Source: a virus
Taxonomy: Duplodnaviria; Caudoviricetes
Strand: one strand, 5' to 3'
Length of the DNA: 64,000 nucleotides
Virus record (IMG/VR): IMGVR_UViG_3300033073_001761
Location: 4,547 to 68,546 of that record
A model generated the notes under the pieces. It worked only from the letters and a program-made list of their open reading frames with translations. It was not told the DNA's origin and ran no database searches. Shown here piece after piece: positions 3,576-32,425 of this stretch (position 1 is its first letter; every line of letters starts with the position of its first letter). The translations under genes and the position numbers were made by a program.

Positions 3576-5063
3576 CTACTCGCCCGCCTGCTCGCAGTTG
3601 TACGCGATCACAACACCGTCAACCGCTGCAATCGTCGTCGCCGCCGGCAGCACCTGCGACGTCGCTAATAGCCCGGCATCAGAAACGACTGTCCCGCCTG
3701 CGGTCGTCGCGGTTCCCTGGCTCACCAGTTCCTCGGTCAGAGTGCTGACATACAGGCCACCAGTTTCGGTCTGGTGTCGGATCGGTGGAGCGATGACCGG
3801 TAGCTCGCGGCGAATCAAAGTAGTTGTCAAACTGTTCTCGATCAATTTGAAAATGGCATCAGTCACCGCCGAACCGTCGACGTTGATTTCTAATCCAGCG
3901 GCGTAAACCCTCCGCATCGGTGAGGCCGCGGCCGCGGATCGATCGAAGTATCTTGCGGCGATGTCGGCCCAAGGATCGGCAACGTCGTCTCGGCCTGGCA
4001 GCGAATCTTGTACCCGCGGCACTTGCACCCGCGCTGTCGTTTCGCGGACCACTTGCTCGGCGGTTCGGCCGGAATCCACCGTCGCCGGCGACCACGGTTG
4101 CGGGTCGTCGTGGTCAACTGGCCGGCGGGAGAAGAGGTCAACCCGCTCAACCTCAAACGCACCTCGGAATATCAGCGGGCGAGCGTCGTAGATCAAATAG
4201 CCGGCAATTTTGCTCTCGATCCCGTCGTCGTTGTTGATCGTCGTATTACCCTTAAACGACAGCGAGTTGCCGTCAATCCTCTTGATCGCCCAGCCCTTGG
4301 TCGCGAAATCCCAGCCGATCACACAGTGTGCGTAGTCAACCAGCTCGCAGATCGCACGCCAGATTGACCGTTGCTCGAACCGCAAGTTTTCCGGCGTCCA
4401 AGTCGGCGCGTCGGGCCAGGCCGGCGGGGAAGTGAGCCCGTCGCCGCCCGGTTGCGTTGTGAACGGTAGTCGCGACCAGAGATCAGCCAGAATCTGCGAC
4501 CACGTCCACGGTTGCCCGCTCCGCAGTGTCGCAGCCTTGTAGTTTCGGGTATCACCAGTGCCGTTGCTTGCCCAGACATTGTAAGCCGCGGCGGGCCACT
4601 CGCTCGGTCGGGCACCTGCTCCCGCCGGCCCTCCGATCCCAGGACCAGTCGACGTACGTAGCCACCACCAGCGAGGGTCGACGACGCGACACGCGACGAC
4701 GGATTCGCTGCCGAGCGTTTCACCGTCTTCGGTTGTCAATTCGCGGACGGTTCGGCCGAAATACTCATACGCTTCGATAATTGTTAGATTGTGAATCTCG
4801 ACTGCCCAAGGTAGATTCGCAGCGTAGGGCGTGTTGTGGAATCGCAATGGCTTTAACTTGTCGACCATTGCAAGGTCATGATACTGTTTGACGGTTGAGC
4901 GAGGCAAGAGTATCCAGCCTTCGCCGTGATCCAGGCCGACCGGTAAGCGGAAAGTGCCGATTGGCAGGTCGGTGCGAACAATCGTCCCCTCGGCCTGGAG
5001 TTGCCGGGCTTGGGCGGTAGGTAGTCGCAGGCAGGGCCAGTCGCCGAAGGTGAGGCCGGGCAT
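3576..5063 (-). CDS. Hypothetical, probable tail/baseplate-hub-like virion protein
   Basis: 495 aa, coupled to the upstream ORF; function inferred from context only. Confidence 0.55.
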   Translation of the reverse strand: MPGLTFGDWPCLRLPTAQARQLQAEGTIVRTDLPIGTFRLPVGLDHGEGWILLPRSTVKQYHDLAMVDKLKPLRFHNTPYAANLPWAVEIHNLTIIEAYEYFGRTVRELTTEDGETLGSESVVACRVVDPRWWWLRTSTGPGIGGPAGAGARPSEWPAAAYNVWASNGTGDTRNYKAATLRSGQPWTWSQILADLWSRLPFTTQPGGDGLTSPPAWPDAPTWTPENLRFEQRSIWRAICELVDYAHCVIGWDFATKGWAIKRIDGNSLSFKGNTTINNDDGIESKIAGYLIYDARPLIFRGAFEVERVDLFSRRPVDHDDPQPWSPATVDSGRTAEQVVRETTARVQVPRVQDSLPGRDDVADPWADIAARYFDRSAAAASPMRRVYAAGLEINVDGSAVTDAIFKLIENSLTTTLIRRELPVIAPPIRHQTETGGLYVSTLTEELVSQGTATTAGGTVVSDAGLLATSQVLPAATTIAAVDGVVIAYNCEQAGE

Positions 5064-6919
5064 TAGTGCTTACCAAACAGAGTTAATAGACTGGAAAATG
5101 CTTGTGTCACTGCTTGTTGGAACGCGAGGTTTTCCATCGCGTCGACTATGGCGCCGGCACCCGAAAATGAACGATCGGTAGCTTTTTTGCTTGAATCTGT
5201 CCCACTAGAATCTTTCGCCGACGGGTGAGGCAGCTTTTTGCCAATCACTCGCTCAAGTAGCCTTTTCTGTCGAATGATCGTTGGTTCACTCGGATCATAC
5301 TGCACGCCGATAAGGTCCAAGGCGTGATTCAAATCTTGATCCACCATCTGCCTGACACCAGTTTCTTGAGTGGACAAGTAGCTAGGCAGTCGCCGATTGG
5401 AACCAGAGAACGACGGCGAATTACTTTTCGTCGATTTCTCTTCCTTAGCCTTCGATTGCTTTTGCAGTTTCTGTTTTTGCTGTCCCTTCCCTTTTGTCAC
5501 GTCCTTGACTTCGCCTTCGATTCCGTACTTTCGCCGATATTTCTCAGCCTGCTCTCGGCTCGGGAACCACCTCTTTGTTCCTTCGATCCGAAATCCCATT
5601 CGCCGCTTACCGCTAGACGCAGACGTCGGAATCCCTCGCGATTGCAATTCCGCTCGCGACGCCGCACGCACCGGCCGATTCTGCAACCGTCCACTGGTCC
5701 CCAGGTCAGGAAGCGGGAACGCGGAACCACCTTTACCTTTATCCGTCCCGAACAGCCACGGCCAGGCCAAAGCTAAGCCGTCGCCCGTGTCACTCTTCCC
5801 GCCGATCAAATAAGGTAGCCCACTTGCAAAATCCTTACCCGCAGCGTGCAGCGGGCCGAGCGCCCAGGCGACGGTCGCGATACCGCCGAGGATTCCGACA
5901 CCGATTGCAATTCCTGGCGCGCCCACAGCCATCATTGCCCCGACGGCCAGCATTGTACCCTTGCCCAGCCCGTACGCTGCAGACCCGGCGATTGCAAGTT
6001 TAACCGCTCGGCGGCCTAGCTCGGCCACTCCCTTGGTATAATTGCTTACCGCTCGGCTAACGATACGACCGGTGAGCCAATCACCTGCGTCGAGAGTCTC
6101 CCACATGACCCGGCTCAGGTTCTTTGCGAGGGCCATGGCCGCGAGGCCGACGCCGCGAGGGTCTTTCGCCTTGTCGGCCCGTTTCGATAAGTTTTCGACA
6201 ATTCCGCGAACACCTTCGGCGAGATCTGCGGCTGATTTGGACTTCGTCAAGACCGCCGCGACCATCCCCTGCATCGCATTGAACGCGCCAGCGTCCAGCC
6301 CGTCGATTACTGGTGGCTGAGCCTTAGTGACCGCGTCCGTTAGCCGCTGTCGAATCCGCTGCGTGTGATTTTTTCTCGCGGCGACGACGTCAGGGTCTTT
6401 CGCAAGCCGTGCTACTTGGTCGGCAATCCCATCGAAATCGGCTTCGGCGTCAGCGAAAGCGGTGGCGACAATAGATTCTGGAGATTCTGGGCCAGCGCCC
6501 TCGCCTTCGCTATCGCCACCCTCGCTTGCACCTGCGCCGCCACTTCTCCCGCCGGCCTCGGTCTTATTGCCATCGGCGAACGCGGCCGTTTCCTCGGCTT
6601 TAGCCTCTTGCCGTTCGCCATACTCAGCCGCTGCATCGCTGGTCGCACGATCTTCGCCGAGTTCGCCGCCGCCGCTCCGGCCGGAGCGAGTTTCGAGCAC
6701 CTTGCCTCCGGTCCGCTTCGCGACGACCGCGGCCTCTTCGGGCTCCAGTCCGTATCTCGGCGGGCGACCGTCTTGGTAGGCGACCTTGACACCCATGCGG
6801 CGATAGCTGGGATTCGTGTAATAGACCTTGGCCTGGTCCCTGAGAGTCTTCTTATACTCCGGAAATAATTGGAGTATTGTTCGCCGGGTGCTAGGCGATA
6901 GGTTAGCAAATGCAAGCAT
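5063..6919 (-). CDS. Putative head-cargo/ejection protein with two RMG modules and a hydrophobic hairpin
   Basis: RRMGVKV... and RRMGFRIEGTKRWF... modules; Gly/Ala-rich TM hairpin; paralogous to 7290..8288 and 23428..24357. Confidence 0.65.
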   Translation of the reverse strand: MLAFANLSPSTRRTILQLFPEYKKTLRDQAKVYYTNPSYRRMGVKVAYQDGRPPRYGLEPEEAAVVAKRTGGKVLETRSGRSGGGELGEDRATSDAAAEYGERQEAKAEETAAFADGNKTEAGGRSGGAGASEGGDSEGEGAGPESPESIVATAFADAEADFDGIADQVARLAKDPDVVAARKNHTQRIRQRLTDAVTKAQPPVIDGLDAGAFNAMQGMVAAVLTKSKSAADLAEGVRGIVENLSKRADKAKDPRGVGLAAMALAKNLSRVMWETLDAGDWLTGRIVSRAVSNYTKGVAELGRRAVKLAIAGSAAYGLGKGTMLAVGAMMAVGAPGIAIGVGILGGIATVAWALGPLHAAGKDFASGLPYLIGGKSDTGDGLALAWPWLFGTDKGKGGSAFPLPDLGTSGRLQNRPVRAASRAELQSRGIPTSASSGKRRMGFRIEGTKRWFPSREQAEKYRRKYGIEGEVKDVTKGKGQQKQKLQKQSKAKEEKSTKSNSPSFSGSNRRLPSYLSTQETGVRQMVDQDLNHALDLIGVQYDPSEPTIIRQKRLLERVIGKKLPHPSAKDSSGTDSSKKATDRSFSGAGAIVDAMENLAFQQAVTQAFSSLLTLFGKH

Positions 6920-6963
6920 GGGAAAGTTCTCGCTGTCAAAGATTCGGTAGACTGTTCAGCTTT

Positions 6964-7293
6964 TCACCGCATCACGATCAAATCACCTCGGATACCTGAT
7001 CCGCCGGCAGCGAGTGTGATCACAACCTTGCTCTTGCCGTCGAAAGGTAGTCCTGCAGGCGGGTTCGAAAACTCGAACTCGTGTGGTCCACCAGTGACGA
7101 TCGGGAGTGTAAACACGACTCGCTCAAGCTCGTCCGCCGCCGAATATTCGGCAACGGTGATCCTGCCACCGGTTGGCGTTGCCGAGTATCCGCACCAGAT
7201 TTTCGAGATCGTCACCCGATAGGGATCGATCGGAATCGTAATCACGACGTCAGTGTTGGTTTCATTATCAAGAGCAATTGAACGTAAGATCAT
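6964..7293 (-). CDS. Hypothetical beta-rich protein
   Basis: 109 aa, ATGA overlap with the upstream ORF. Confidence 0.65.
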   Translation of the reverse strand: MILRSIALDNETNTDVVITIPIDPYRVTISKIWCGYSATPTGGRITVAEYSAADELERVVFTLPIVTGGPHEFEFSNPPAGLPFDGKSKVVITLAAGGSGIRGDLIVMR

Positions 7294-8288
7294 CGGAAAG
7301 TCCTCGCTTGTTTCTTGCCGCGTCGCGGTGGCAACGCAAACGGGAACGGCGATCCGCCCCGATTTTTGTCAGACGAAAATAAGAACGTCCAAGCGAATCG
7401 GATCGGAGCACGCGGGCCAAGGTAGTCGAGCCCGTCCTTGCTACCGCCGAGACGGAATAGCGATTGCAGTAAATCTTGGTGAGCAGCCGCCCATGGGCCG
7501 AGCGTCCAGAGGGCACCAGCGACCATCGAGCCGAGGAAAACCTTACTCGCGACCGCTGAGCCCATAATCCCCGCGAAAATCACTGGTGACGCGAAGGAAA
7601 AGCCGATCACGCCGAGCACGCCCCAAGCAATGCCGACCATCACTGATCGCTTATACACGTCATAGATTCTGGTTCCCTGGAACTGTCTCGCTCCGTTGGC
7701 GATTTGCCGGCCGAGAAACCGAGCAGCCTTGCCGAGCGTCGATTGCTCTTGCGGTCCTTGTTCGGAGTATTCGCGGAGCTGTCGGACACCGCCGTAGTAA
7801 GCATCGTGCCACTGCTCGGCTGTCTGGGCACCGAGCATGCCGCGGATCATGCTGCCCGCGATTTGGCCGGCGGGTGAAGGGTGCTGTTGGCCGGTGATGT
7901 AAGGGTCGGATCGGTCCCAGACTGGTTGCGGGACCGATTGCAGGATCGGGCCGGTCTGCCGGGCAAGCTGCTCATGCTGGGCGTAGATTGCTTCCGGCGA
8001 TAAGGCTTCGTGGTACGATTGGTGCTGCGATTGCTGCGATTGCGAATATTGAACTGGCTGCCCAAACTGGTCGTAACCGCCGTGATTTTGGCCGCTTTGG
8101 CGAGGTTCGTAGACTTCGCCACCGTGATGTTGGGCGTAGCGATGCGCAGATTGTTCGTCGTCGAAGTAGTAGCGATCGCCGGAATGAGTCAGAACGGCTG
8201 TCTGGGCCATCCGAAAGAATCGACGGCCAGCGGCGGGCGATGGCAGCGACAAGATTTGGTCAATCAGTGTTGCTGCTGCTGCTGCCAT
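7290..8288 (-). CDS. Putative head-cargo membrane protein with RMA module
   Basis: FRMAQ...YYFDDEQSAHRYAQHHGGEVYE module; hydrophobic hairpin; C-terminus FAWTFLFSSDKNRGGSPFP matches LAWPWLFGTDKGKGGSAFP of 5063..6919. Confidence 0.65.
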   Translation of the reverse strand: MAAAAATLIDQILSLPSPAAGRRFFRMAQTAVLTHSGDRYYFDDEQSAHRYAQHHGGEVYEPRQSGQNHGGYDQFGQPVQYSQSQQSQHQSYHEALSPEAIYAQHEQLARQTGPILQSVPQPVWDRSDPYITGQQHPSPAGQIAGSMIRGMLGAQTAEQWHDAYYGGVRQLREYSEQGPQEQSTLGKAARFLGRQIANGARQFQGTRIYDVYKRSVMVGIAWGVLGVIGFSFASPVIFAGIMGSAVASKVFLGSMVAGALWTLGPWAAAHQDLLQSLFRLGGSKDGLDYLGPRAPIRFAWTFLFSSDKNRGGSPFPFALPPRRGKKQARTFR

Positions 8289-8387
8289 TGGCGGTAAATC
8301 CTGTCGGTCGCGTCGCGGTCTGCTTTTCGGCCAGTAATCCGGTCAGGCTAATATTTTCGCGACCGACAGGATAATCTGCTGACGCGA

Positions 8388-9452
8388 TTACCAAGGTTGG
8401 GCAGTTCGCAGTAGCGAGTTCTTTTGCTGAATCCGAAAGCCCATCTTTATGCCGGCGGGAGAAGGTGCCATCGCCCTCGCCCCCATCAACTCACGAATCG
8501 GCGTCAGCCCCATCGCGACAAACCCTTGCCCCTGCTTCAGCAATTTTCGCGGCGGGGCTTGCATGCGGAAGGGATTCTTCGGCGGTTGGCCAGTCTTTAG
8601 CCACTCTTCCGCCTCGCCGACGCCAAGTTTCGCAGCATCCTTGATCGTCAAAGGAAAGACGTTACAACGACAATTGAAGTGTCTGACGGGTTTCAATTTC
8701 GCGTAAACAGGATCGTCCGCTCGATAAACTGACGTGCCATCAATCCCGGCCGTCGCGAAATACTGGCATAACTTCGTTCGCCGGCCATCCGCAATCGACG
8801 AATCGTACAGATACGGAAACGCCTCGCCGACAATCGGATCGTCTAATACTCGCTCCAGTCCGTCGTGGTAGCTTTGGTTGACGGCCACTCGGTACACTGT
8901 CTCCAGGTGCGCGTCAGACAGTGGAGAACCTTCGCCGGCGACAGCTTCGGCGATCATTTCTTTGGCTTTCGCGATCGACGGACCCTCGGCCAAAATCTCG
9001 GTAATTGCCGTCTGGATTCGCTCGATCACGTCTTCGGAGTGTTGGCCCGAAACGGTGAAGTGCTTGTCTCGCTGCTCCGAATCCAGAGCATAGAACTCTT
9101 CGGCGGTCAGGATGCCGCGATTGCTCAACGCCTGAATCGCGGCCGCAGTTTTCGGAAACTTCGCGACCTCGGCCAAGTCGGTCATTTCACGGCCGCTGAA
9201 TCGTCTTGCCGGAATAGACGCGGCCGCATCGCCGGCGGAACGGAGATACGCTTGCAAAGCCGTGTCGGCAACCTGGTCGCTAAAAATCCCCTCATATTCC
9301 GTGAGAATCTCAGTTACTCGCCGGTCGAGTTCTTCGGGCGGCAATACCTTTGGATCGCCGATACGCGAGTTGAGCTCACCGATCAGCGACTGGACAATCG
9401 CAGAGTGCTGAGTAATCGCGTCGTTGATTAGCCGGCGGTAATCTGGGGTCAT
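8388..9452 (-). CDS. Phage Mu F-like minor head (morphogenesis) protein
   Basis: HLETVYRVAVNQSYHDG; DGRRTKLC; PVRHFNCRC (MuF P.HxNCRC motif). Confidence 0.85.
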   Translation of the reverse strand: MTPDYRRLINDAITQHSAIVQSLIGELNSRIGDPKVLPPEELDRRVTEILTEYEGIFSDQVADTALQAYLRSAGDAAASIPARRFSGREMTDLAEVAKFPKTAAAIQALSNRGILTAEEFYALDSEQRDKHFTVSGQHSEDVIERIQTAITEILAEGPSIAKAKEMIAEAVAGEGSPLSDAHLETVYRVAVNQSYHDGLERVLDDPIVGEAFPYLYDSSIADGRRTKLCQYFATAGIDGTSVYRADDPVYAKLKPVRHFNCRCNVFPLTIKDAAKLGVGEAEEWLKTGQPPKNPFRMQAPPRKLLKQGQGFVAMGLTPIRELMGARAMAPSPAGIKMGFRIQQKNSLLRTAQPW

Positions 9453-9480
9453 GGGTTAAGCTCGCTGCTGCTGCTGCTAA

Positions 9481-12400
9481 TTACCAACCACGTCCACGAC
9501 GGCGGTTCATCCGATCTTCAATCGCCTTTATCAGCCGCAGCATTTGATTGTCGTTCAAACCACCCTGGAAACCAGCGAACAACACCCTGGCTCCGATTTC
9601 AGATTGTCCGAACTTACCGCCTTTCGCGTAGGCGGTTCGGTACTCTCGCCTTTGCTCCTCCTCGGACAGCTTGTCAAACTGCCGCCAAGCATGGGCAAGA
9701 TTTCGATACTTGTCGGAACGCGAGTAATCGCCGCCGACGGCATCGAAAACGGCACCAGAGAATTCGAGTTCGGTTGGCAAACCAGGGCCAGCTTTAGCCT
9801 CGGCCTTCAGTGTTTCGTCGCGATCGTACTCTTCCTGAGTGGCCGGACGATTGCCGCTCGGTTGTTTCTCGCCCGTGCGGGACTTGCGAGGGTCATACGC
9901 TTTAGTCAGCAAGTGCATGATCAGCTTTGCCTGTCGCCGATTTCTTACCTCGCCGCCAACAAAGTCGATCCCCAATTCGTCGAGCAAACCATTCAATTCA
10001 TTGTCAGAGAGTGCCGTAATATCGTTTCCGACAGCGTAAGCTTCGTCGAAGGTAAATCGATCACGATTGGCGAGTTTCCGGATACGGTCGATATTTGCCG
10101 GAGCCTTTTCAGGAGCCTTCGTTGGCTTGCCTTTTCCTTTTTCTTCGCCGATTACAATTCCGGCCTTCTCGACGATATTCTTATGATCAAACGCTAATTC
10201 CATGTCACCCAGCTTGTCAACGTCGATCCACTGAGCGTCGCTTGCGTCGTCCGACCCGCGAACGTCGTCAAGATTGGCGGCGGTTGTGCTAGGAATGTGC
10301 AACTGGAACGCCGTCGAAACTGCCCAGGCTTTCGGGTTGTCTCGCGGATCGCGGCCGCTCGGCTTTTTCTTATCGCCAAAGACGCCAACCTTGGCCATGT
10401 TGGCTTTAATCGTCTTTACGTCCAGGCCGGTTTCCTCGGCAAGCTCGCGAATCGCCGCGTCTTCGACGGATTCTCGGCCCGGCTTCCAGCGTTGGCCCTT
10501 GGGAGCGTCGGTATCATGGAACCCGCCAGGCAGAGCCCACTTACCGTTTTCCCATTTGCCCTTGCGTTTGATCAGCAGTATCTGCTTTTTCCCGTTCTTT
10601 CCGTCGCGAGTAATCACAGTATCAACCGTCGGATTAGGACCGGGCCGGTAATACGGTTGCTTTTCCGTGCCCCAGTCGCCTGGTTCCGAATCTTCTTTGG
10701 CCTTGGCCTTGGCCTTGGTTTTGGTGGTTGCGGCTTTAGTTGCTGTTGCCTTTTTGCTACCACCACCACCAGGCTTCCTGGTCACATCCCTGACCTGGCC
10801 CTCAATCCCATATTTCGTTCGATATTTCTCGGCCTGTTCTCGGTTCGGGAACCAGCGTTTTGTACCCTCGACGCGAAAGCCCATTTGCCGAGTTGGCGAC
10901 TTCTGGCTACCCTTACCTGCTCGTTTTGATTTCGATCGCTTAACCAAGTGCCGAACGATCCGCGAGACAATTTGCGAATCCTTTTCGGTTCGCTTGGCAG
11001 GTAATCCAAGCTTCGCAGATAGATCGATCAAATCGTCGAGGTGCAAGTTCTGGTAAAGACTTTGGCCGGCTTCTCTGATCTGCTTGACGCTGCCGCCATC
11101 TCTTGCGAGTAACCTCGCCGCACGCATAATCTCGTATTTTTCGGCATGCGCGTCGGCAAGTCCTTTGGCCTCGACGTGATCGTGGAGTCCAGTACCGCGA
11201 TAGTGATAGTACAGTTTCCGAAAATTGCGGGACCGAGCACTATTGTCGGTTGGCCACTCATCTTCCTCGCCCGCTTCCTCGAACTCCGGCGGTACCATCT
11301 CAAGCCATTCGTCTTCATCAGGCTTCCGGGTCACATCGACTACCTCGCCACCCGATTGCTGCGCGAATTCGCTCGCCGCGGCTTGGTCAGCAAACCAGCG
11401 ATCACCGACCTTGAAGCCCATGCGGTGCTTCTTACGTTCTTCGTAACGTTGGTTTTCTCGCACACGTTCGGCAAAATCGAAAGCATCGCCACCCATGAGC
11501 AGGTTTTCGATCCCGGCATCCAAAACGCCATCAATAGTGTCGCCCAGGTCGTCGGATGGCTCAGGCTTAGTGACAGGTGGCTGAGGTTTCTTGGCTGGCC
11601 CTTCAGCGGGCTTTCCGACTTTCGCGGCAACTTTCTCGGAGAACCTTTTCTTTCCTTGACCCTGACGGCTCACATCACGCACTTCGCCGCCGGACGCGGT
11701 CGCGTAAGCCTCCGCCTTGGCGCGATCACCAAACCATCTTTTGCCGACCTTGAAGCCCATGCGTCGAAGCGGATACCAGGTTGCCTCGACCGCGTGTTGC
11801 ACATTCCCCCGCCGGCGAGTAATTCGCGACCAGAGGGACATTCGTATCTCGTGCGTTGCCTCTGGCTGTGACCGAAAAGCGTACCGCAGAACTTTTGCAG
11901 CGGTCTCTTTCGCAGCCATAGAAATATCGGGGTGCTGGCCGCGCAAGTGTCGCAAACGATCACCGAGCCCAACAGCTGAAATCGCGGTGTCCGGGTGTCC
12001 GATCCCACCGCGAGCAATATCGAGAGCGACTTGCCCGGCTGCTTGCGCGGCCTGCAACGCGACAATCTGCGGGTGTTCTTCCGGCGTGCCGCTCTGCGTG
12101 AGCCGCTGCCGCGTAACGGCAAGATCGCGAACCGCAGCTTCGATCTCACTTGCCGGCACGCGACCGGGCCGAACGCCAGCTTCGCGGATCAATCGTAGTG
12201 CCAGCAACGGCCGCTGATCGGCCTTTTGCCCGCCAAGCGAAAACGTCGATCGTTGCCGAATCGTTAGTATTTCCTGCTCCGCGTCGTCAAGGGACGCAGC
12301 GACGGTGGCCTGCAACCGCTGGTGTGGTGCCATTCGGCTCAAGGTCAAGCCAATCACACCAGGCCAAGCACCGTGGACGACACCCGAGGCGATCGCGTGC

Positions 12401-14762: not shown

Positions 14763-14765
14763 GGT

Positions 14766-16028: not shown

Positions 16029-16069
16029 ATCCGGGATTATCCGGGTCGGCCAGAATTATTTGCGAGGGA

Positions 16070-16489: not shown

Positions 16490-16579
16490 CCCCTTGCCGA
16501 TCTTGCTTACACTATTTCGGTCGGCCAGTCGTTGGGACCAGCGACCAATTATACTCTTGCCCCGGATGAAAGCAGCACA

Positions 16580-17946: not shown

Positions 17947-17948
17947 AC

Positions 17949-18491
17949 ATGGGACGCCCTAAGAAACCAAAGCAACCGACACCACCGTCTGATCCATTTG
18001 GCGATGGCGGTGATCATGAACCGCTTGATTTATCCGCGGAAAACGAAAGCGTTAACATTGACATTCCTGAAACCCAGGAACCAAAGTTGGCCGTGCCTTT
18101 GTCGCCTTCGCCACCATTGGACACCAAGTTCTGCAGCGAATGCGGCGAGAAGATTCGTCGAAAAGCGGAGATTTGCCCGAAATGCGGGTGTAGGCAGGGC
18201 AGCGAGGAACCGACAGCTTCAATCAAACCGGTAGGCCGAGAGTTCGAGAATCGCCGACTTATGACTGGTGGACTTTGCTTGTTTCTTGGTGCCCTCGGCA
18301 CCCACCATTTCTACAGAGGAAGCTACATCCTCGGAGCTATTTACTTGGCGATCACACTTCTTGACAACACCGTTGGGAATGAACGATATACCCGAGCAGT
18401 TGTGGCTATATGTATGGCCGAGTCTGTTTTTTACTTCACCATGTCGTCAAAGTACTTTGCCGAAAACATTTGGCTAAGAGAAAGCGATTAG
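17949..18491 (+). CDS. Zn-ribbon plus TM2-domain membrane protein
   Basis: KFCSECG...CPKCG double ribbon; LCLFLGALGTHHFYRG TM2 motif. Confidence 0.8.
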   Translation: MGRPKKPKQPTPPSDPFGDGGDHEPLDLSAENESVNIDIPETQEPKLAVPLSPSPPLDTKFCSECGEKIRRKAEICPKCGCRQGSEEPTASIKPVGREFENRRLMTGGLCLFLGALGTHHFYRGSYILGAIYLAITLLDNTVGNERYTRAVVAICMAESVFYFTMSSKYFAENIWLRESD

Positions 18492-20347
18492 CTTTCTTCC
18501 TCTACTGTCGCTGCTTCCAGCCCGATATCGTTTTCTTCCAGTGACGTTCCTGTCGTCGCTGGCGTCAAGTGAGCCGGCGGGAGAGGTATCGTTGCGATTG
18601 CCTCAGTGGTTTGGTATTCAATCATCCATTTGAGAGTGTGAATGTCCATACCACTTTCAGTCTGTCCTCGCTTGCCCCGCGCGATCATGTGTCGCTTGAC
18701 CAAGACAACTTGCTTGCCTTCGATCGATTTCAGTTCGGGCACTGGGATTGGGTATTTGACTCGTTCGGCGGCTCCAATGAGAAACAGCCTTTTGGCTGAC
18801 GAATTCAATCTTTGTACGATTGCCGGTTTGGCCTCGCCCGTCGGATCATGCAAGCGGGCTACCGAAATATTCGTCGGCGACAGCGTACCCGAATCAAGAT
18901 CATCATCGCCACGCCCGCCCGAAGACTCCGGAGCCGCAATGTCGATGACAACGGCTCGTCGACTGGTATCGCTCGCCACGATACGCAGGTCATGCTTGAC
19001 CCACGATGTTTCTGGCGTCAGCTTTGCGGATTGATCCCCAAAATAAGCGAGTTCGTCGGTCACTGTTGGGCTGGCGGTTGTCTCAACGTAATAAGGCTTG
19101 CTTGTCGCATCGTCGAGACAAAGATCAACCAAGGCTTCGTCTTGCGGTCGCCAAACTAAGCCAGAAATGCCGTCAGGCTTGCGAGCATCAGCGACAGAAT
19201 CAGCCCATTGTTGCCAGGAGTAATCTAGGCTCTTCCAGATGGCCGACTTTTCGAGAATCTTGTCAAATCTGGTAGTTATGCGGTAACTGATCGATATCGA
19301 AACGTTCATGTCTGAAAGCGAGGTAGAAATCGAGAGACGTTTGATCAATCGCAAGCCGTCATTGGTCGCCAACCCGTCGCCAATCCCTTTTTGTCGCATG
19401 ATGTTTTCGAAGATTGACCACGCGATAGCCTTACCTTCTCGCTTAAAGATTCGGAAAGAAACAGATAGATTGCACTCCCACTCAGCACCCCAGACATTCC
19501 CTGAAACGGAATGGCTACCGTCAAACCGAACAACTCGATTTGGCCAACCCCAAGTGGTGCTTCGCTCGCTATCAGTGATAGAGAATTGCAACTGAGTTCG
19601 ATCGGGCGAAAAAGTTGTTGAAACTCGCCGCTCAAAGTCTGGCAGCGGTTTGAAAATCTCGTTGAGCCGTCGTTTCCATAAATCGCCCGCGTTTGGCGAT
19701 TTTCGCCAGTCTTCCGGCCAAGCAAATCCACCATCCGGCACAATCTCGCCGTTTCCATCGGTCGTCAATCCGCCGGCGGGGAAGATGGCCGTACCACTAA
19801 TCAACCGTGTCACCAATCCAGAATCGTCTACCGAGTGCGACACTGAATAACCGATACCAAGCAGCCGGTTGCCAAACACTGGTTGACCATCTTCGGTAGT
19901 GCTGTCAAATGTAAAGCACCCCTGGACGCGGAATCGAATCGACAGCGAAATTGCCGCCGCTGATTTGCCGGCAATTCGCGTGATTCGCAGGCCGGCGGGA
20001 TGAGGGCCGTTGCTCATCTCAGGATGCGTGACACCATCTTCGCCGTTGGTACCGATCACCCATTTGCCGACCGCCGCATCTTCGATCGAGAGCTTGAGTT
20101 TCTTGCGTTTCAGCGTCGATTTGGCAGCAAGAATCGCCTCGTCAATCGAAGTTCCGTCGACGGCGACCAAGGTATCTTGAATCTGCAAGGTCACGTCGGT
20201 GTACATCGTCGACCGATTACTCGGATCGGCAACAAAATCCATCGAAAGCTGATGCCGTGCAACACCGCTAAACTCCCACGAGCCGTAGGACACTTTGGCG
20301 ATGACGTCGAGTAGTCCGAGTTTCTGGAGCGGGATTTCGGTAGCCAT
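18488..20347 (-). CDS. Hypothetical tail-associated protein
   Basis: 619 aa directly downstream of the tape-measure-like gene. Confidence 0.6.
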   Translation of the reverse strand: MATEIPLQKLGLLDVIAKVSYGSWEFSGVARHQLSMDFVADPSNRSTMYTDVTLQIQDTLVAVDGTSIDEAILAAKSTLKRKKLKLSIEDAAVGKWVIGTNGEDGVTHPEMSNGPHPAGLRITRIAGKSAAAISLSIRFRVQGCFTFDSTTEDGQPVFGNRLLGIGYSVSHSVDDSGLVTRLISGTAIFPAGGLTTDGNGEIVPDGGFAWPEDWRKSPNAGDLWKRRLNEIFKPLPDFERRVSTTFSPDRTQLQFSITDSERSTTWGWPNRVVRFDGSHSVSGNVWGAEWECNLSVSFRIFKREGKAIAWSIFENIMRQKGIGDGLATNDGLRLIKRLSISTSLSDMNVSISISYRITTRFDKILEKSAIWKSLDYSWQQWADSVADARKPDGISGLVWRPQDEALVDLCLDDATSKPYYVETTASPTVTDELAYFGDQSAKLTPETSWVKHDLRIVASDTSRRAVVIDIAAPESSGGRGDDDLDSGTLSPTNISVARLHDPTGEAKPAIVQRLNSSAKRLFLIGAAERVKYPIPVPELKSIEGKQVVLVKRHMIARGKRGQTESGMDIHTLKWMIEYQTTEAIATIPLPPAHLTPATTGTSLEENDIGLEAATVEEES

Positions 20348-21702
20348 CAGTCAAACGTTCCCATCGTCTTGTTCCAGCCTTCTCTACCTTCATCAACAGC
20401 CTTTTGTAGTGGTGCAAGGAATCCCTCCTCTTGACCAACAACGTCCGGCATCACATTTGTCTGACCGGTGATGAACCGCTCCATATCATTGACAAAATCG
20501 CCGCTTTCCTGTTTTACTTTCTCTTGCTCGATACCGTACCAGTAGTTAATGAACGCTTTCGCCCATTCGACTGGGTTAACTACTTTCACAATATCGATTA
20601 AACGTTCAATGATAAATTGAATGAGCGAAGTTATAAATCGCAAAATCTCGATCAACATTTTGACGGCTTCCAGAGTGCCAGCAATGAAAGGCATGAGCGA
20701 ATCAACAAGCCTTCGACCAGTCTCGGTTATGCCTAAGTTGATATCGGTCAATTTTTCCGTCATCTCCGCCAGACCACTGGTTAGATTCTCATTCTTCGCC
20801 GCCCTCACGTCCGCCATCATCGTCCTCGCCTCGCCGACGCTCTGAGCCGCGCTAATCTCCGGCGAATATTGCGAGAGCCGATTGGCGGTCTGGTTCGCCG
20901 CGTAGCCGAGAGCGGCAATTGATCCGACTGTCGCTGCAATCGCGACGCCCAGCGGCCCCAATTTGCTCGCTACACCGACCGCCGCTTCAGATACCGCAGC
21001 TAACCCTGCCGCAGTAGAGCCGCCAACACCCTCGCCAGCCGCGGTAACTCTGGCCGCCAGCGTTCCTGCTTGCGAGACACCAGCGACGATCGACGATGAC
21101 AGACTGCTCGTGGTCGATGTTGGCGACGGGCCGCTTTGGCTGCTGTTATCTGCACCTTTTGCTTGCCCCGCAGTGGCCGTTGACTCGGTTGCAGTTGGCT
21201 TCGCCGCCGCAGCAGCAGAATCTCCTGCACTCCCACCAACCCGCACCGCCGCCGTATTCCGATCCAGCGCCGCAACCAACCGCTCGATCGCCGGAACCGC
21301 CGCGACGAACCCTTCTCCCGTCGGCCCTTCTCGCCGCTGTTCGTCGGCCTCGGCGATCGAGTCGTAGCCACTCTGTGATTTGCCGTCGCCGCTGTCCTTG
21401 TCGGTCCCTGGCCGCGGCACGATCACACGCAGATCGTTGTTTGCGAGCAACCTGTCCGAGGCGAGAGTACCAGCACGGACCGCCGCGGCCGCACCAGCGA
21501 GAAAGCTGTCAGGGATAGCAGTTGGTGAGCCCGGAAGATTTTGGCCGGCGGGAGAAGGGTTCCCACTTCCGGGACTTCCGGGCCTGCTTCCCGAACCGCC
21601 GCTGGTCCCGGGACTTCCGCCAACGTTGACACCCGTACCGTCGTCCAAGACGATCCGCAGCACCACGTCATTCTGGCTATTGCTAGGCCCGCCGCCGATC
21701 AT
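20347..21702 (-). CDS. Tape-measure-like protein (short)
   Basis: Ala/Gly-rich helical protein with amphipathic FITSLIQFIIERLIDIVK segment, after tube and chaperone genes. Confidence 0.55.
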   Translation of the reverse strand: MIGGGPSNSQNDVVLRIVLDDGTGVNVGGSPGTSGGSGSRPGSPGSGNPSPAGQNLPGSPTAIPDSFLAGAAAAVRAGTLASDRLLANNDLRVIVPRPGTDKDSGDGKSQSGYDSIAEADEQRREGPTGEGFVAAVPAIERLVAALDRNTAAVRVGGSAGDSAAAAAKPTATESTATAGQAKGADNSSQSGPSPTSTTSSLSSSIVAGVSQAGTLAARVTAAGEGVGGSTAAGLAAVSEAAVGVASKLGPLGVAIAATVGSIAALGYAANQTANRLSQYSPEISAAQSVGEARTMMADVRAAKNENLTSGLAEMTEKLTDINLGITETGRRLVDSLMPFIAGTLEAVKMLIEILRFITSLIQFIIERLIDIVKVVNPVEWAKAFINYWYGIEQEKVKQESGDFVNDMERFITGQTNVMPDVVGQEEGFLAPLQKAVDEGREGWNKTMGTFD

Positions 21703-21717
21703 CCGGTACCTCTGTCA

Positions 21718-21990
21718 CTACAGTTTGCCGCTGCGAATCGCGGCATCTTGATCGGCTCGAATCGCCGCGAGCACAATATCGTCGGCAGAATCTCGATCCA
21801 TCGTCGCGGCCAAGGCCAGCCGCCTCAGGTCGTCGTAATCACCCCACTTGCCGGCCGCGACCCGCTCACCCGCTTCAATTCGGCCGAGCAGGCTCGACAG
21901 CAGCGTTTGCTCCGTCGCTGACGCTCGCCACGGATTGACCCCGGGGAACGCCTTAGCTATCTTGGCCAGCCGAAAGATACCTCCGTTCAA
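21718..21990 (-). CDS. Probable tail assembly chaperone, downstream part
   Basis: Position; overlaps the previous ORF by 38 nt with no strong start. Confidence 0.4.
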   Translation of the reverse strand: MNGGIFRLAKIAKAFPGVNPWRASATEQTLLSSLLGRIEAGERVAAGKWGDYDDLRRLALAATMDRDSADDIVLAAIRADQDAAIRSGKL

Positions 21991-22273
21991 GTCGCTGCCA
22001 GTCGGTGAGCACCTTCGCCCGAATCAGCGTCGCGTGGCTGCTAGTCAGCGACAGCGGCGGCTGCTCAGGATCGGCAGGCTGCAACAATCCTTGGAGAACC
22101 GGAATAATTGCGGCTGCGTCGTCAGCGTTGAACGGTCGGCGTTCGTCGATCTTTCGCGACTGCTCAAAATTGGAAATCGCGAGCAAAAGGTCACCGAGCT
22201 CCGCGGAATATTCGTGCCCGTGTTGCCGGACTACCGTTCGCGTCTCTTCGAGGTCGAGGATTTGATTAACCAT
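21953..22273 (-). CDS. Probable tail assembly chaperone
   Basis: Between tail tube and tape measure genes. Confidence 0.45.
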   Translation of the reverse strand: MVNQILDLEETRTVVRQHGHEYSAELGDLLLAISNFEQSRKIDERRPFNADDAAAIIPVLQGLLQPADPEQPPLSLTSSHATLIRAKVLTDWQRLERRYLSAGQDS

Positions 22274-22335
22274 GGTTCTCTAATACTCTTTCGCTGCTAA
22301 GAATGTCTAACTATTGAAACTGCTATCGGATCAGA

Positions 22336-22851
22336 TCAGCTATTCGTGTAAAAAATCGGCTTCCCATCCGGACCGGGATAAGGGTACAGAACAAACATCA
22401 CCGGGATAATTCGCAGCTGCGAATTCAAGGCATACCGAACACCCTGATCAACGGCCAGCGTCGCGAAATTCGCGGTGTAGACATCGCCCAGCGAATCGGT
22501 TGCGGCCAAGGAATCAGACCATTGCGGCGTCAAGATTAGCTGCTTGGTCTTGTTTGAATCACCCGCCACCGACGTACCCGGGACAGCCATTCGGCCGCGA
22601 GTACCGCACCAAGAGGTTAGCAACGCTCGAATGCCTGGCGAATCAGCTTCGAGGAAGTTAGCGCGAATCATCACCGACTGGCCGATCTCGATATCGTCGA
22701 TCCGTGTTTGCGGACCGTATTGGTCGCTCTGGATCGGTTGTCGGCCGACTTGCTTGATGATTTCGAAGCCGCTCTGGTCGGTCAGGCCGCAATTCAGATT
22801 GCCCCAAGTGCAAGTGTAGGGGCCGGCAATCGGTTCGGTTAAGAAAGACAT
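22336..22851 (-). CDS. Probable tail tube protein
   Basis: 171 aa, beta-rich; GPYTCTWG...GLT...GFEI pattern; position. Confidence 0.55.
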   Translation of the reverse strand: MSFLTEPIAGPYTCTWGNLNCGLTDQSGFEIIKQVGRQPIQSDQYGPQTRIDDIEIGQSVMIRANFLEADSPGIRALLTSWCGTRGRMAVPGTSVAGDSNKTKQLILTPQWSDSLAATDSLGDVYTANFATLAVDQGVRYALNSQLRIIPVMFVLYPYPGPDGKPIFYTNS

Positions 22852-22873
22852 GGTTCGCTAATCCCCTAATCAA

Positions 22874-23419
22874 TTAAATCTCGGCCCCGCCAAATGACAG
22901 CACCCGCATGATTCCCGATCGCGATTCCGGCTCCGAGTTCCAGGTGCTGCCGTCAATTTCTCTCGCGGGCGACGTCGACGACCAATAAAGCGGCCGATAA
23001 TACTTCCGACCACCGATTATCGTCATCGCCCGTGAAATCACCTGGTAATTCGCGTGGAGCAAATTGCGAACCTCTTGGACCCGCGGGTTGAATTCGTGTT
23101 TCAGGTAGTACACGCCTGTCTTTTCCGGTGGCCGTGCATTCAATCGCCCGATTAGCGCGATCGACACCGAAAACTGAATCCCCAACTGCGGCAACACCTG
23201 CGAATTAATCCGTTCGCCGTCTGAATACACCGCGTAAAACCAGTCGCCCGAACCCGGAAAAGCGTAAGGGCCGAGCGTAATTTCGGCCCCGTGAATCCCT
23301 CGCGGTATCCGCAACGTTTCGCAGATTACTTGAGTAACAGCCTCAGTGAGAGCATCTTCTTCGCTAAGCGGCCGGGATAGCCGCGAGGCAACATCGCTCA
23401 CCTGTGTTTCGCTGGCCAT
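22874..23419 (-). CDS. Probable tail completion/terminator protein
   Basis: 181 aa directly upstream of the tube gene. Confidence 0.45.
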   Translation of the reverse strand: MASETQVSDVASRLSRPLSEEDALTEAVTQVICETLRIPRGIHGAEITLGPYAFPGSGDWFYAVYSDGERINSQVLPQLGIQFSVSIALIGRLNARPPEKTGVYYLKHEFNPRVQEVRNLLHANYQVISRAMTIIGGRKYYRPLYWSSTSPAREIDGSTWNSEPESRSGIMRVLSFGGAEI

Positions 23420-23427
23420 GGAACCTC

Positions 23428-24357
23428 TCAGATCAAGTAACGCTCGCGCAACTCGGCCACGCCTCGCTTGTGCTTTCGCGCCGTCGACTCGGCCCAGTTC
23501 GCGAAGATTGTGCCCGCGGTGCCGCCGACCAAGCCAATCAATCCCAGGGTCATACCCAGAATCGGCACCCAGAGCGGCATTGAAGGGATTGCGACACCAG
23601 CAATAATCAAAGCGCCCGTCCCCTTGGATAGCCCCATCAAAGCGGAAAAGCCTGCAGCAGCGCCGGCCAGCTCAACCAATGACCACGATGTATTTGCAAT
23701 CGTCGCCGCAGCACCACCAATATCCACGGCCCGCTCAGAATACTTATCCACGGCGATCGCGAGCCGGTGAGCCAGGACTTTCGCCGCCTTCAGGACATGC
23801 GGCGGCAATTTACTCGGCAGCTTCGACTTGTCGGCATGCTGGTCTTCGTATTTCTGCAGCGTGTCACGCAGCTTCGCGAGCGGGTCGTCAGCGTCCAGCC
23901 AGGGCCGCAGATCCTTGAGCACTTGCCGCGGCGGTCGCTTTGTCAGCCGCCGTTCTGCGGTCAAGATAGCTGGCATCCAGCCCGCGCCGAGGCCAGGAAC
24001 TGCGGCCAAAACCTCGCGGGCCGACGATCGGGTCGGACCAGCTTTGACGTCAATCACCTCGCCGCGGCGTGCCGATCGCGATTTTCCCGCGTCGCCACTT
24101 CTCCCGCCGGCCTTACCTCGCTTTGTCTCTCGGACTTCGCCGCCGCTAGCCTTGGCAATCGCCGCCGCAGCCTCACGATCGCCGCCGGTGTACCGCACTC
24201 GGCCGTCGGGGAGCGTGACCTTCCACCCCATGCGACGGATCGCGACCGGCGCCGTAATCCGATCGGCGATCAGCAACTGCCGAAGACGGCCGGCGGGAGA
24301 AGGTGCCGACCCAAGCAGTCCGTCGCCGAGCAATGCCTGAACCTGCACCTGCACCAT
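23428..24357 (-). CDS. Putative head-cargo membrane protein with RMG module
   Basis: RRMGWKV...IAKASGGEVRETKRGKAGGRSG; C-terminal hydrophobic hairpin; paralog of 5063..6919. Confidence 0.65.
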   Translation of the reverse strand: MVQVQVQALLGDGLLGSAPSPAGRLRQLLIADRITAPVAIRRMGWKVTLPDGRVRYTGGDREAAAAIAKASGGEVRETKRGKAGGRSGDAGKSRSARRGEVIDVKAGPTRSSAREVLAAVPGLGAGWMPAILTAERRLTKRPPRQVLKDLRPWLDADDPLAKLRDTLQKYEDQHADKSKLPSKLPPHVLKAAKVLAHRLAIAVDKYSERAVDIGGAAATIANTSWSLVELAGAAAGFSALMGLSKGTGALIIAGVAIPSMPLWVPILGMTLGLIGLVGGTAGTIFANWAESTARKHKRGVAELRERYLI

Positions 24358-24359
24358 TA

Positions 24360-24713
24360 TTACGATCCTAAGAGCGTGCTAGCGATAATATCCCAGCCGG
24401 GAAAGCCGCCGAAGTTGCGATCGTCGATATAGACGTCGGCGTAGGCTTTTCGGCGGATCGGTTCGTCGCGGAATTCGTACTTTTCGGGTGTTTCGTTCAC
24501 GCCGTCCCACTCGATCCCGTGTGCTTGCGACCACCGGATCGCCGCGTCGAGGTACTTACCCTCACGACACGTCCAGATGATCAGTATCCAGCCAGCGGCC
24601 TTGAGTTTCCGCAGCGTCTCGATTGCACCAGGCAGCGGCTCGTCAATTTCCGGCCACTGGTGCTTGCAGACCGTGCCGTCGAAATCTACCGCTACAATTT
24701 TCGACCTACTCAT
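24360..24713 (-). CDS. HAD-superfamily hydrolase (phage phosphatase type)
   Basis: IVAVDFDGTV, IIWTCR, ADVYIDDR motifs; start placed at ATG 24713. Confidence 0.85.
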   Translation of the reverse strand: MSRSKIVAVDFDGTVCKHQWPEIDEPLPGAIETLRKLKAAGWILIIWTCREGKYLDAAIRWSQAHGIEWDGVNETPEKYEFRDEPIRRKAYADVYIDDRNFGGFPGWDIIASTLLGS

Positions 24714-24729
24714 AACCCATGGCCCATAT

Positions 24730-25509
24730 TCAAACAGCATCCTGGATAGCAATCGCAATTCCTTCTCGCACCGAATCGGCAACCTCGCGCTGCCAATCGA
24801 TCGGCATGCGTCGTGGCCAGAGCGGCCGTTTCCCTTCACCGTGTCGACCGTGATGGTAAATTGCATACGGAACTTGCGTGCCGACAGAAATGGTACCACG
24901 GCTGATATCAAATAATTGGTCGCGAGCACCTGACGGCAGGGCTAGTGACTCAATACCCGGCGTGAAGGAGTTGAAAAGCACGCCAGTATCACGCAGGATC
25001 TGCACCTTACGCCGGCCAAAAACATCAAGTTTCGTACGCGCACCCTCGGATTTCAAAATCGACCACGCCGTTTTGCCGGCTGTTGCGGCCGCTTCTCCCG
25101 CCGGCACACCGCGATTGATCAGCCTCGCCTTCGTTGTCGCGAAAATCGCGTTCCATTTCTTTTGCTCGGCCGCGGTGAGCAACCCGCCTTTGCCGGCCAC
25201 GCCGCGATTTTGCCGTCGACTATTGACGCCCGCCTGCCGCTTGAGTTCTGCTTGCTCGCCCGGACCAAAGCGACGGGAATACGCTTTGGTCTTCGGGGAA
25301 AGATCGGGCCAACGAGTGCCATCGACGCCCGGTTGGCCATCGGCAAGCTTGACAAAGTTCTGCTGGATCAGCGATAGCAGCCTGATCCCGCCGCGTGTGC
25401 GAATTCTTGCCCCGATTCCGTTGTTGTCCGGGCCCGTGCCGATCACTGCGGCAACAATTTCTTGCGTCCGCTGGACAAGCTGATCGCGATTGAGCCGATG
25501 GCCGGGCAT
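24730..25509 (-). CDS. Virion morphogenesis protein (Mu gpG-like)
   Basis: TRWPDLSPKT...ILRDTGVLFNS...VGTQVPYAIYH pattern. Confidence 0.8.
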   Translation of the reverse strand: MPGHRLNRDQLVQRTQEIVAAVIGTGPDNNGIGARIRTRGGIRLLSLIQQNFVKLADGQPGVDGTRWPDLSPKTKAYSRRFGPGEQAELKRQAGVNSRRQNRGVAGKGGLLTAAEQKKWNAIFATTKARLINRGVPAGEAAATAGKTAWSILKSEGARTKLDVFGRRKVQILRDTGVLFNSFTPGIESLALPSGARDQLFDISRGTISVGTQVPYAIYHHGRHGEGKRPLWPRRMPIDWQREVADSVREGIAIAIQDAV

Positions 25510-25510
25510 C

Positions 25511-26062
25511 TTAGTAATCCCAGAGCGTGGAATAGAGCATCGACCGATAGTCGACCACTCGCGGCAGCGAGCTCGGCCCGCCCGTGCTCTGATGGATCTT
25601 CACCCGGATCGGTCGAGCTCGGCCTGGCCGCACCGTAAATCGGGTCACCGTCGGCACCGGCTTCGACAATTCCGGGACACCAGGCAGCGGCGACTGGTTG
25701 GCTTTGATCGCTTCGAGCGTCTGGTTGATCACCTCAATCTCGGCGATCAAGTTTTGCGGTGCCGGGTTGCCGCCTCGGGTCAGAAGTCGCCACGCCGCAA
25801 TCGTTGTCGCTGCGATATTGACCCAGCGAGCACCTTCATAGTCCTGGACGTTGAGCAGATCCTGCCCGTTGTACCGCTCGACGGTGTACTGGCTGATATG
25901 CCGAGACGCATAATTGATGCAGTAGGCGTAGACAGCGTCGGCGTCTTCGTGCTCTGAAGAATAGTGATAGTCGTCGGCGTGCGACTGGGCGCCGATGTAT
26001 TTGAGTAGCATCTGGATATCAGCGGCCGTGCAAAATTGCTCGCCAGGGTAAGTTGTCGGCAT
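25511..26062 (-). CDS. Head-tail adaptor (Mu gp36/DUF1320-like)
   Basis: FCTAADI N-terminus; ASRHISQY; EVINQTLEAIK. Confidence 0.7.
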   Translation of the reverse strand: MPTTYPGEQFCTAADIQMLLKYIGAQSHADDYHYSSEHEDADAVYAYCINYASRHISQYTVERYNGQDLLNVQDYEGARWVNIAATTIAAWRLLTRGGNPAPQNLIAEIEVINQTLEAIKANQSPLPGVPELSKPVPTVTRFTVRPGRARPIRVKIHQSTGGPSSLPRVVDYRSMLYSTLWDY

Positions 26063-26064
26063 TC

Positions 26065-27048
26065 TTACGCTCCTTTAGATATCTGTTTGTCAGTCCACGG
26101 ATCGTGAACCTTTGGCGTCAGTCTTCCCGTCGGCAATTTGTGTCGCTTTGCGATAGCCGCGGCCGCATTTGCCGCGATTAGTCGAGCGGCCTGGCCTCGG
26201 TCCGTGTGCGTCAAACCGTCGTAATAAGCTTGGACAATCGGCAGGCCGTCGCGGTCAACAAGCCAATCCTCGGCGAATCTTGCGGGCGATTCGCGACGGT
26301 CAGACTTTTCCCAGTCGTCCATGATCGCCGCGATCACCGCTCGCTCGTTGGCGCGGAGCTCGAACGGTTGTTGGCGGTATAATCTCTCGATCTTCGCATC
26401 GTCGACCACCCGGTCGAGCCCATCTACCGATTCGAGATACTGTTGCCGATAATCGCCTTCGTCGTGGATCTCGGCATCGTCAAGGTGCGCGAGCTCGTGA
26501 AGCGCGACATCTCTGGCCGCTCCAAGGATGTAGTCAGGCCTGATCGATCGGTGATCGTCGCCGAATCTGCTGGGGCTCACGATCTCAATTTTCGCGTTGC
26601 CAGTGCCGCCAGGCTCGAACGTGATCAGGCCGTCTGTTCGGTCAGCGGTGCCTACCGGCCGAACGGCGTTTAGGACCACTTTTCGGCCGTCGCGCATCGT
26701 GACCTCGAACGGCCTCCAGTTGTCGCCACGACTCCCTGCTGCTCGCTGAACTTCGCGATACCGTTCCAGGGATTTCGTGGCCGCGCTAACCGTGTCGTTC
26801 GATCCTCGCTTGTCGCGACGCTCGTTTCGCTCTTCGCGAGTGACGTCGATAATCTTGCCGGTCAGTCCAGATTGCTCAGCGGCTTTGCGTGTCGGAAACC
26901 AGCGTTTGCTACCCTCGACGCGAAAACCCATCCGGATTCGGCCGGCGGGAGAAGGTGCCGCAATACGCAGCAGCAATCTTGCGGTCTGGCTCGGCGACAG
27001 GCCACGATCTAAGGCTCGGCTGATCTTTTGTCGGGTCGTCGTCGCCAT
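26065..27048 (-). CDS. Putative head-cargo protein with RMG module and zincin-like HExxH metallopeptidase
   Basis: IRMGFRVEGSKRWF...; VALHELAHLD...QQPFELRA. Confidence 0.7.
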   Translation of the reverse strand: MATTTRQKISRALDRGLSPSQTARLLLRIAAPSPAGRIRMGFRVEGSKRWFPTRKAAEQSGLTGKIIDVTREERNERRDKRGSNDTVSAATKSLERYREVQRAAGSRGDNWRPFEVTMRDGRKVVLNAVRPVGTADRTDGLITFEPGGTGNAKIEIVSPSRFGDDHRSIRPDYILGAARDVALHELAHLDDAEIHDEGDYRQQYLESVDGLDRVVDDAKIERLYRQQPFELRANERAVIAAIMDDWEKSDRRESPARFAEDWLVDRDGLPIVQAYYDGLTHTDRGQAARLIAANAAAAIAKRHKLPTGRLTPKVHDPWTDKQISKGA

Positions 27049-27060
27049 CAGGTATTCCAG

Positions 27061-27103
27061 AAAAGTAAAACCGGCGGGAGAGTATTTTCAACTCGCCCGC
27101 CGG
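27061..27103 (-). terminator. Intrinsic terminator after the major capsid gene
   Basis: CCGGCGGG...CCCGCCGG hairpin followed by TTTTACTTTT on the minus strand. Confidence 0.75.
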
Positions 27104-32420: not shown

Positions 32421-32425
32421 AAAAC

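Follow-up and report, generated by a model that had tools for sequence, protein, structure and literature searches.

In both T4 (PMC3012670) and P1 (PMC9024508), a short shared signal loads unrelated proteins into the phage head, and proteins with payloads of the kind discussed below have been described adjoining MuF or fused to it (Iyer et al. 2017, PMC5512222). Here we describe a repeated protein module in a phage of the Caudoviricetes (Duplodnaviria) and compare it with these systems. The DNA comes from IMG/VR record IMGVR_UViG_3300033073_001761, a single linear virus record of 68,546 bp with an estimated completeness of 93%; the stretch that we call the window is 64,000 nucleotides long, corresponds to positions 4,547 to 68,546 of that record, and covers most of it. 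In the window, a module of ~40 residues occurs eight times in five proteins, here called A to E. Judged by sequence and by structure prediction, it is a conserved, lineage-specific mini-domain, and we put at roughly 45% the probability that it is a shared docking or incorporation handle for internal virion (ejection) proteins, a reading that rests on gene context.

The module belongs to none of the T4, P1 or polyvalent systems, although it resembles each of them in part. With the T4 capsid-targeting sequence (CTS) of IPI-III and Alt it has in common that a conserved element is carried by diverse proteins, here near the N-terminus in four of the five, that the cargo is basic, and that there may be a link to maturation cleavage (PMC3012670). 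However, the CTS is a short terminal peptide that is removed by the prohead protease, whereas the module is a folded domain that begins at residue 22-40 and lies internally in half of its copies; the two have no sequence similarity. The likeness to the DarB/Dar proteins of P1 is that large anti-defence proteins, with membrane-less partners, are loaded into the head via an N-terminal signal of <30 residues (PMC9024508). In contrast to the repeated domain common to five proteins here, the P1 signal belongs to one protein, and loading is ordered by DarA and Hdf. The MuF-linked polyvalent proteins, for which delivery with the DNA has been predicted, resemble this locus in gene content: a giant protein with a Nudix domain lies beside MuF and portal, and a protein with an HExxH motif lies in the block (PMC5512222). 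In polyvalent proteins a MuF or portal domain is fused to effectors, whereas here MuF and portal are separate genes, and protein C (1,625 residues, encoded between them) has no MuF match and a single recognisable enzyme domain, the Nudix domain. Encapsulin cargo-loading peptides and the dockerin-cohesin pair are alike in principle, since a portable tag on unrelated cargo binds a shell or scaffold receptor, but neither is homologous to the module: the tags of encapsulin cargo are short peptides, terminal and unstructured, while a dockerin is a domain of ~70 residues that binds calcium.

The module was detected with a profile of its copies, run over the complete genome (68,546 bp) translated in all six frames. 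Exactly eight matches were obtained, all on the minus strand and within five open reading frames (Table 1), and no other match fell below an expectation value (E) of 0.09, the next-best lying at about 0.1. The first-pass annotation, made from the sequence alone, had reported a module of ~35 residues in about eight copies and five reading frames; all of these copies were recovered within a few codons of where it had placed them. In a leave-one-carrier-out analysis, the profile was rebuilt without each carrier and run on a database of 1,582 frames, where noise ranged from 0.1 to 1: every copy was the top non-training match once its own carrier had been excluded from the profile, with E between 3.5e-13 and 8e-9 for the three copies in C. 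The consensus, xxxRRMGFKVxGxKRWFxDRExAExYAxxSGGEVxDVTRx, is ~40 residues long, with Met, Ala and two Gly positions invariant, the opening Gly nearly invariant, and a conserved Glu and Asp in the last strand. Six of the eight modules carry a net charge of +4 to +8. The 30 residues that follow copies C1, C3, A2, D and E are basic as well (+4 to +5), and those after C1, C3 and A2 are rich in lysine. In four of the five carriers (A, B, D and E) the first copy begins at residue 22-40, behind a short leader of 21-39 residues. We also considered the idea that the invariant Met is an internal start, and saw no ribosome-site signal there, a signal that genuine gene starts in this genome lack too.

The copies are old paralogues under purifying selection that acts on the module peptide itself. 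A2 and C3 form the closest pair, with 78% identity at the protein level, a proportion of synonymous differences (pS) of 0.77 and of nonsynonymous differences (pN) of 0.15; 17 of the 32 codons for identical residues differ, and the flanks are just 18-19% identical in protein. In all remaining pairs of copies pS lies between 0.5 and 0.9. Because synonymous sites are saturated and the flanks cannot be aligned, the copies must be old and held by selection on the peptide. The earlier remark that two copies are close in nucleotide sequence thus stands (79% identity, 5496-5605 versus 10781-10890), but the similarity reflects amino-acid conservation, and a recent duplication or a DNA repeat is ruled out by the saturated synonymous sites.

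With the eight paralogues as alignment, AlphaFold2 gave a strand-strand-helix-strand mini-domain with a predicted local distance difference test (pLDDT) score of 81.7. When protein E was modelled from its single sequence, the 30 residues of the module (pLDDT 77-80) were the one N-terminal stretch with a confident model. The module is therefore predicted to fold independently, as a mini-domain. Searches with this fold gave nothing above noise: the best Foldseek E was 5.5 against the PDB and 1.2 against BFVD, which is noise level for a model of 42 residues; the best VIA-align Z score was 4.0, and the notes of the tool itself class Z ≤ 4 as noise; and the best ESM Atlas score with the module as query, 0.84, was not significant. 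The rows at this level comprised de novo EEHE mini-proteins, zinc-finger-like strand-strand-helix units and topoisomerase fragments.

The module also appears to be new. As the first-pass annotation had proposed, a profile was built from the copies and searched, here exhaustively with HMMER against 1.84 billion representative proteins. It returned the five carriers, all of them singleton clusters from this contig, and three artefacts: two proteins of low complexity, and clostridial repeat toxins that were picked up because hairpin matches were summed. Searches of the module against Pfam at E ≤ 10 and against PDB sequences gave nothing significant, and no NCBIfam or PHROGs family passed its cut-off. 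The impression that the module belongs to no named family was thus borne out in Pfam, PDB, Foldseek, VIA-align and ESM Atlas, and no known nucleic-acid-binding domain was found to match it by sequence or by fold, so that the refuting match named in the first-pass annotation did not turn up. Four candidate families were tried and rejected. NosL (PF05573) reached at best 11.9-14.6 bits against a cut-off of 24, over profile positions 103-123 only. DUF7196 (PF23826) matched the D copy alone, at 14.6-16.4 bits against a cut-off of 27, a score that control genomes equal, and its Foldseek row had an E of 5.6. DUF7211 (PF23847) had no match at E ≤ 10 anywhere in the genome. The cell-wall-binding repeat (CW_binding_1 type) was absent from the Pfam lists at E ≤ 10, and each module has one hairpin, with no tandem array; the matches to clostridial toxins in the PDB are sums of stretches, each with E above 200. 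On the sequence evidence, the module is a new, lineage-specific domain, so far confined to one contig. The phage itself has no close relatives: its best portal relative is 27% identical, nothing useful came from scanning viral contigs for its capsid, MuF and portal proteins, and no relatives were found for protein E or for the N-terminal 870 residues of C.

Table 1. Module copies, carrier proteins and head genes (positions in the window; E values from profile searches)
Feature	Position	Strand	Details
Copy A2	5492-5614	minus	Protein A residues ~438-478; profile E 1.8e-20; leave-out E 6.7e-18
Copy A1	6686-6814	minus	Protein A residues ~39-80; long-hairpin subtype; leave-out E 1.2e-3
Copy B	8106-8231	minus	Protein B residues ~22-62; most divergent, RMAQ replaces RMGF; leave-out E 9.6e-4
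Copy C3	10774-10899	minus	Protein C residues ~1168-1209; immediately upstream of Nudix domain
Copy C2	11323-11436	minus	Protein C residues ~989-1026
Copy C1	11662-11778	minus	Protein C residues ~876-915
Copy D	24118-24246	minus	Protein D residues ~40-81; long-hairpin subtype; leave-out E 7.9e-10
Copy E	26833-26949	minus	Protein E residues ~37-73; leave-out E 1.3e-9
Carrier A, 618 residues	5063-6919	minus	Leader, module, acidic low-complexity region, membrane hairpin (321-357), module, basic tail, C-terminal domain
Carrier B, 332 residues	7290-8288	minus	Leader, module, Q-rich region, membrane hairpin (214-255)
Carrier C, 1,625 residues (1,637 from upstream GTG at 14394)	9481-14358	minus	N-terminal ~870 residues, three modules, Nudix, C-terminal region
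Nudix hydrolase domain of C	10168-10629	minus	Pfam PF00293, E 1.9e-14, 54.3 bits against a cut-off of 21.1
Carrier D, 309 residues	23428-24357	minus	Leader, module, basic region, membrane segments (239-285)
Carrier E, 327 residues	26065-27048	minus	Leader, module, basic linker, payload with HELAH (26485-26499)
MuF-like minor head protein	8388-9452	minus	phrog_220, E 2.8e-24; Pfam Phage_Mu_F, E 1.6e-4 (below cut-off)
Portal protein, Mu type	14766-16028	minus	Pfam Portal_Mu, E 6.4e-17
Probable major capsid protein, lambda-E-type	27171-28412	minus	Pfam Phage_cap_E, E 4.1e-4 (below cut-off); GMGMVRV at residue 36
Decoration-like protein	28564-29361	minus	
Scaffold-like protein, 789 residues	29449-31818	minus	Very long acidic tract; three MGL[RS] sites (residues 173, 640, 756)
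Large terminase	32513-34156	minus	

The carriers join the module to different payloads (Table 1). The hydrophobic hairpins noted at first pass are confirmed as membrane hairpins or segments in A, B and D; C and E have no membrane segment. The further claim that the carriers are otherwise different holds for their payloads but not throughout. A and B (5666-5983 and 7293-7646) have in common a glycine-rich membrane-hairpin domain followed by G-G-S-x-F-P, at 32-38% identity, and the A1 and D regions are 42% identical over 76-78 residues. The hairpin domain of A and B is thus a second element shared among these putative ejection proteins. Carrier A matched no Pfam, PHROGs or NCBIfam family. In C, the proposed Nudix payload is secure, with a Pfam match above the cut-off and an intact Nudix box (E-x7-RE-x2-EE-x-G-L, ESVEDAAIRELAEETGL, at residue 1308). 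NCBIfam places it closest to the Nudix halves (ADP-ribose pyrophosphatase) of NadM-Nudix enzymes and to NtrR, which is of the ADP-ribose type, and it could be an injected enzyme that acts on defence signals derived from nicotinamide adenine dinucleotide or ADP-ribose. The zincin proposed for E is a weaker case: the HExxH motif is present, as HELAH at residue 184, but lacks support from family or structure, as no family or PDB match was found for the payload and the model there has a pLDDT below 50. ESM Atlas gave sub-threshold leads to SprT-like proteins (0.86), LPD23 (0.87) and M56 (template modelling, TM, 0.36). The look-alikes of the E payload (26065-26750) in the Atlas are unnamed phage protein clusters of 208-282 residues (score 0.94, a lead only). 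These look-alikes, drawn from language-model features, suggest that the payload exists elsewhere without leader and module.

The genes of A to E run in the same direction as those for the portal, MuF, capsid, decoration and neck-like proteins, and abut or overlap their structural neighbours. C, B and A flank MuF and come after the portal gene, and E comes after the capsid gene. D sits between a weak neck-like gene and unassigned genes, so that the original placing of all carriers among head genes is approximate. The scaffold-like protein occupies the expected scaffold position, and no family was found for it in Pfam, PHROGs or NCBIfam. Whole-genome searches of the same three collections matched none of A to E to a known virion-protein family. 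Promoter and terminator scans stayed at chance level. The gene order itself is unusual: the terminase, scaffold-like, decoration and capsid genes are split from portal and MuF across 14766-34156 by ~11 kb of unassigned genes together with a plus-strand island (about 16457-18491). Outside the virion block lie a subtilase (S8), which is the sole recognisable protease in the genome, a RecD2-type helicase and a protein with the FGE-sulfatase fold (46632-48329, 55020-57380, 61732-62796).

A DNA motif with the core CCTTCTCCCGCCGGCC, often GGCACCTTCTCCCGCCGGCC, is dispersed through the genome. It occurs 30 times on both strands at ≤2 mismatches, against ~0.04 expected by chance according to our own estimate; examples are 8450-8465, 12549-12564, 12774-12789, 24288-24303, 26940-26955 and 58432-58447. 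Read in the sense direction it nearly always encodes (A)PSPAG, and antisense mostly PAGEG or AGGRSG. Copies of the motif lie directly against module edges in D, in E and in the tail of MuF. When the motif was used to seek a host or relatives, it was found in 0 viral contigs and in genomes as 33 single chance-level matches with no extended similarity.

Both the gene context and the payloads are in keeping with proteins that are internal to the virion or ejected from it. The payload kinds (membrane hairpins, Nudix, and basic tails rich in lysine and alanine) match those of known virion-delivered proteins, and the positive charge of most modules has its counterpart in the long acidic tract of the scaffold-like protein, which we count in favor of docking. 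In these respects the idea of an address tag that loads effectors is partly supported: one module is joined to varied payloads, its carriers are packed together with portal, MuF and capsid, and it matches no nucleic-acid-binding family. From this we infer how loading might proceed. During procapsid assembly, the basic module would bind one common receptor, most likely the strongly acidic scaffold-like protein, or else MuF or the portal. All five carriers (A, B and D with their membrane hairpins, the giant C with its Nudix domain, and E) would be pulled into the head by this binding and would later exit along with the DNA. The opening x-M-G-hydrophobic-basic residues may double as a site for a maturation protease, in which case the leaders would be trimmed and C and A would be cut.

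The opening of the module recurs in head proteins. Outside the modules, M-G-[FLWVMI] occurs nine times in the genome: six of these sites fall in five head-assembly proteins (2,236 residues), against three elsewhere (18,544 residues; p about 1e-4). The scaffold-like protein accounts for three of the six (all MGL[RS]), the MuF tail for two (residues 314 and 337) and the N-arm of the capsid protein for one (residue 36). The C-terminus of MuF contains AMGLT at the first of its two sites and IKMGFRI (8430-8450) at its end. A full, frameshifted module at this end was considered and rejected: only the first seven residues, IKMGFRI, are present, and no frame continues the module. The tripeptide in head proteins could reflect a maturation-cleavage code or a shared docking strand.

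Several points weigh against docking as the function of the module. The virion role of A to E is deduced from gene position, and the module and its five carriers were found on this contig alone, with none elsewhere to show the module on varying cargo. Two copies, B and C2, are not basic but neutral or acidic. Half of the copies are internal (in C at residues 876, 989 and 1168, in A at 438), and a simple N-terminal tag leaves them unexplained. The tripeptide enrichment test was post hoc, being defined after the data had been seen, and no prohead protease was identified with Pfam, NCBIfam or PHROGs, nor with models of Mu-like proteases, which stayed below their cut-offs across the genome. The T4-like form of the proposal, a tag removed by a protease, fits the data imperfectly: the module is a folded domain of ~40 residues, where a short peptide at the terminus would be expected, half of the copies (four of the eight) lie internally, and the protease was not found.

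These points leave room for other functions. The module may instead be a small DNA-binding domain, its carriers being DNA-associated internal or non-virion proteins that are packaged, if at all, through their binding to DNA and not through a capsid receptor. The net charge of six of the eight modules, the basic residues and histone-like tails next to them, and the avidity that several copies per protein would provide all argue for this. Strand-strand-helix is moreover the topology of zinc-finger-type DNA readers, and the best of the non-significant structural rows are fingers and topoisomerase fragments (Z ≤ 4.0). However, a Z of 4 or less is noise level, no DNA-binding family is matched significantly by sequence or fold, two copies are neutral or acidic, and the last strand holds the conserved Glu and Asp; we therefore regard DNA binding as unlikely. 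A more elaborate version, in which the mini-domain would read the 16-20-bp motif with core CCTTCTCCCGCCGGCC, so that cargo is tethered at fixed addresses on the chromosome, enters the head together with it and is released in order at ejection, strikes us as far-fetched. It is improbable, too, that the carriers stay outside the virion, as late-expressed proteins of the membrane or cytoplasm that the module recruits to some other common partner. None of A to E falls in a known virion-protein family, and many neighbouring genes likewise have no assigned function; but their genes are closely packed, on a single strand, with those for the portal, MuF, capsid and neck-like proteins, and the opening motif of the module recurs in the MuF tail.

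There are two further possibilities. In one, the module serves chiefly for processing: a maturation protease cuts at x-M-G-hydrophobic, the folded part aids recognition, and the leaders are the targeting signal, as in T4. In favor of this, the invariant Met and nearly invariant Gly stand at the start of the module, and A, B, D and E each have a leader of 21-39 residues ahead of their first module. The tripeptide is also enriched in the scaffold-like protein, in the tail of MuF and in the N-arm of the capsid protein, and proteins of these classes are cut by the maturation proteases of T4-like and giant phages (PMC5694885, PMC10052503). Yet a mere cleavage site needs no 35 further conserved residues, copy B reads M-A-Q in place of M-G-hydrophobic, no protease gene is recognised near the head genes, and the enrichment was tested post hoc. 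The capsid site, moreover, lies in the N-arm, which is left uncleaved in capsids of the lambda type. With these objections, a processing role is somewhat less likely still than DNA binding. In the other, the module acts after ejection, on the cell envelope (such as peptidoglycan) or another host target, or its copies pair with each other and assemble A to E into a trans-envelope or internal-core complex. Membrane hairpins in three carriers are in keeping with this, and small exposed sheets can pair edge to edge. The first hairpin, G-F-K-V-x-G-K-R-W-F, also resembles a single cell-wall-binding repeat, and clostridial toxins gave the only PDB sequence matches, which are weak and summed. But the individual repeat matches are insignificant (E above 200 per stretch), the Pfam cell-wall-repeat model is absent even at E ≤ 10, a single hairpin cannot build a repeat solenoid, and C and E have no membrane segment, which makes an action of this kind as improbable as a non-virion role.

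Docking of internal virion proteins is thus the reading that we favor, and its practical limits are severe: the evidence comes from one metagenomic contig, with no host and no relatives. If the reading is correct, the module would be a folded, portable packaging domain, unlike the short peptides of T4 and P1, and could be useful for placing foreign proteins in capsids. In phages whose hosts are poorly studied, it could also serve to recognise injected effectors. Finally, it would indicate that a design of one tag and many cargoes has been reached independently by phages without detectable relatives.

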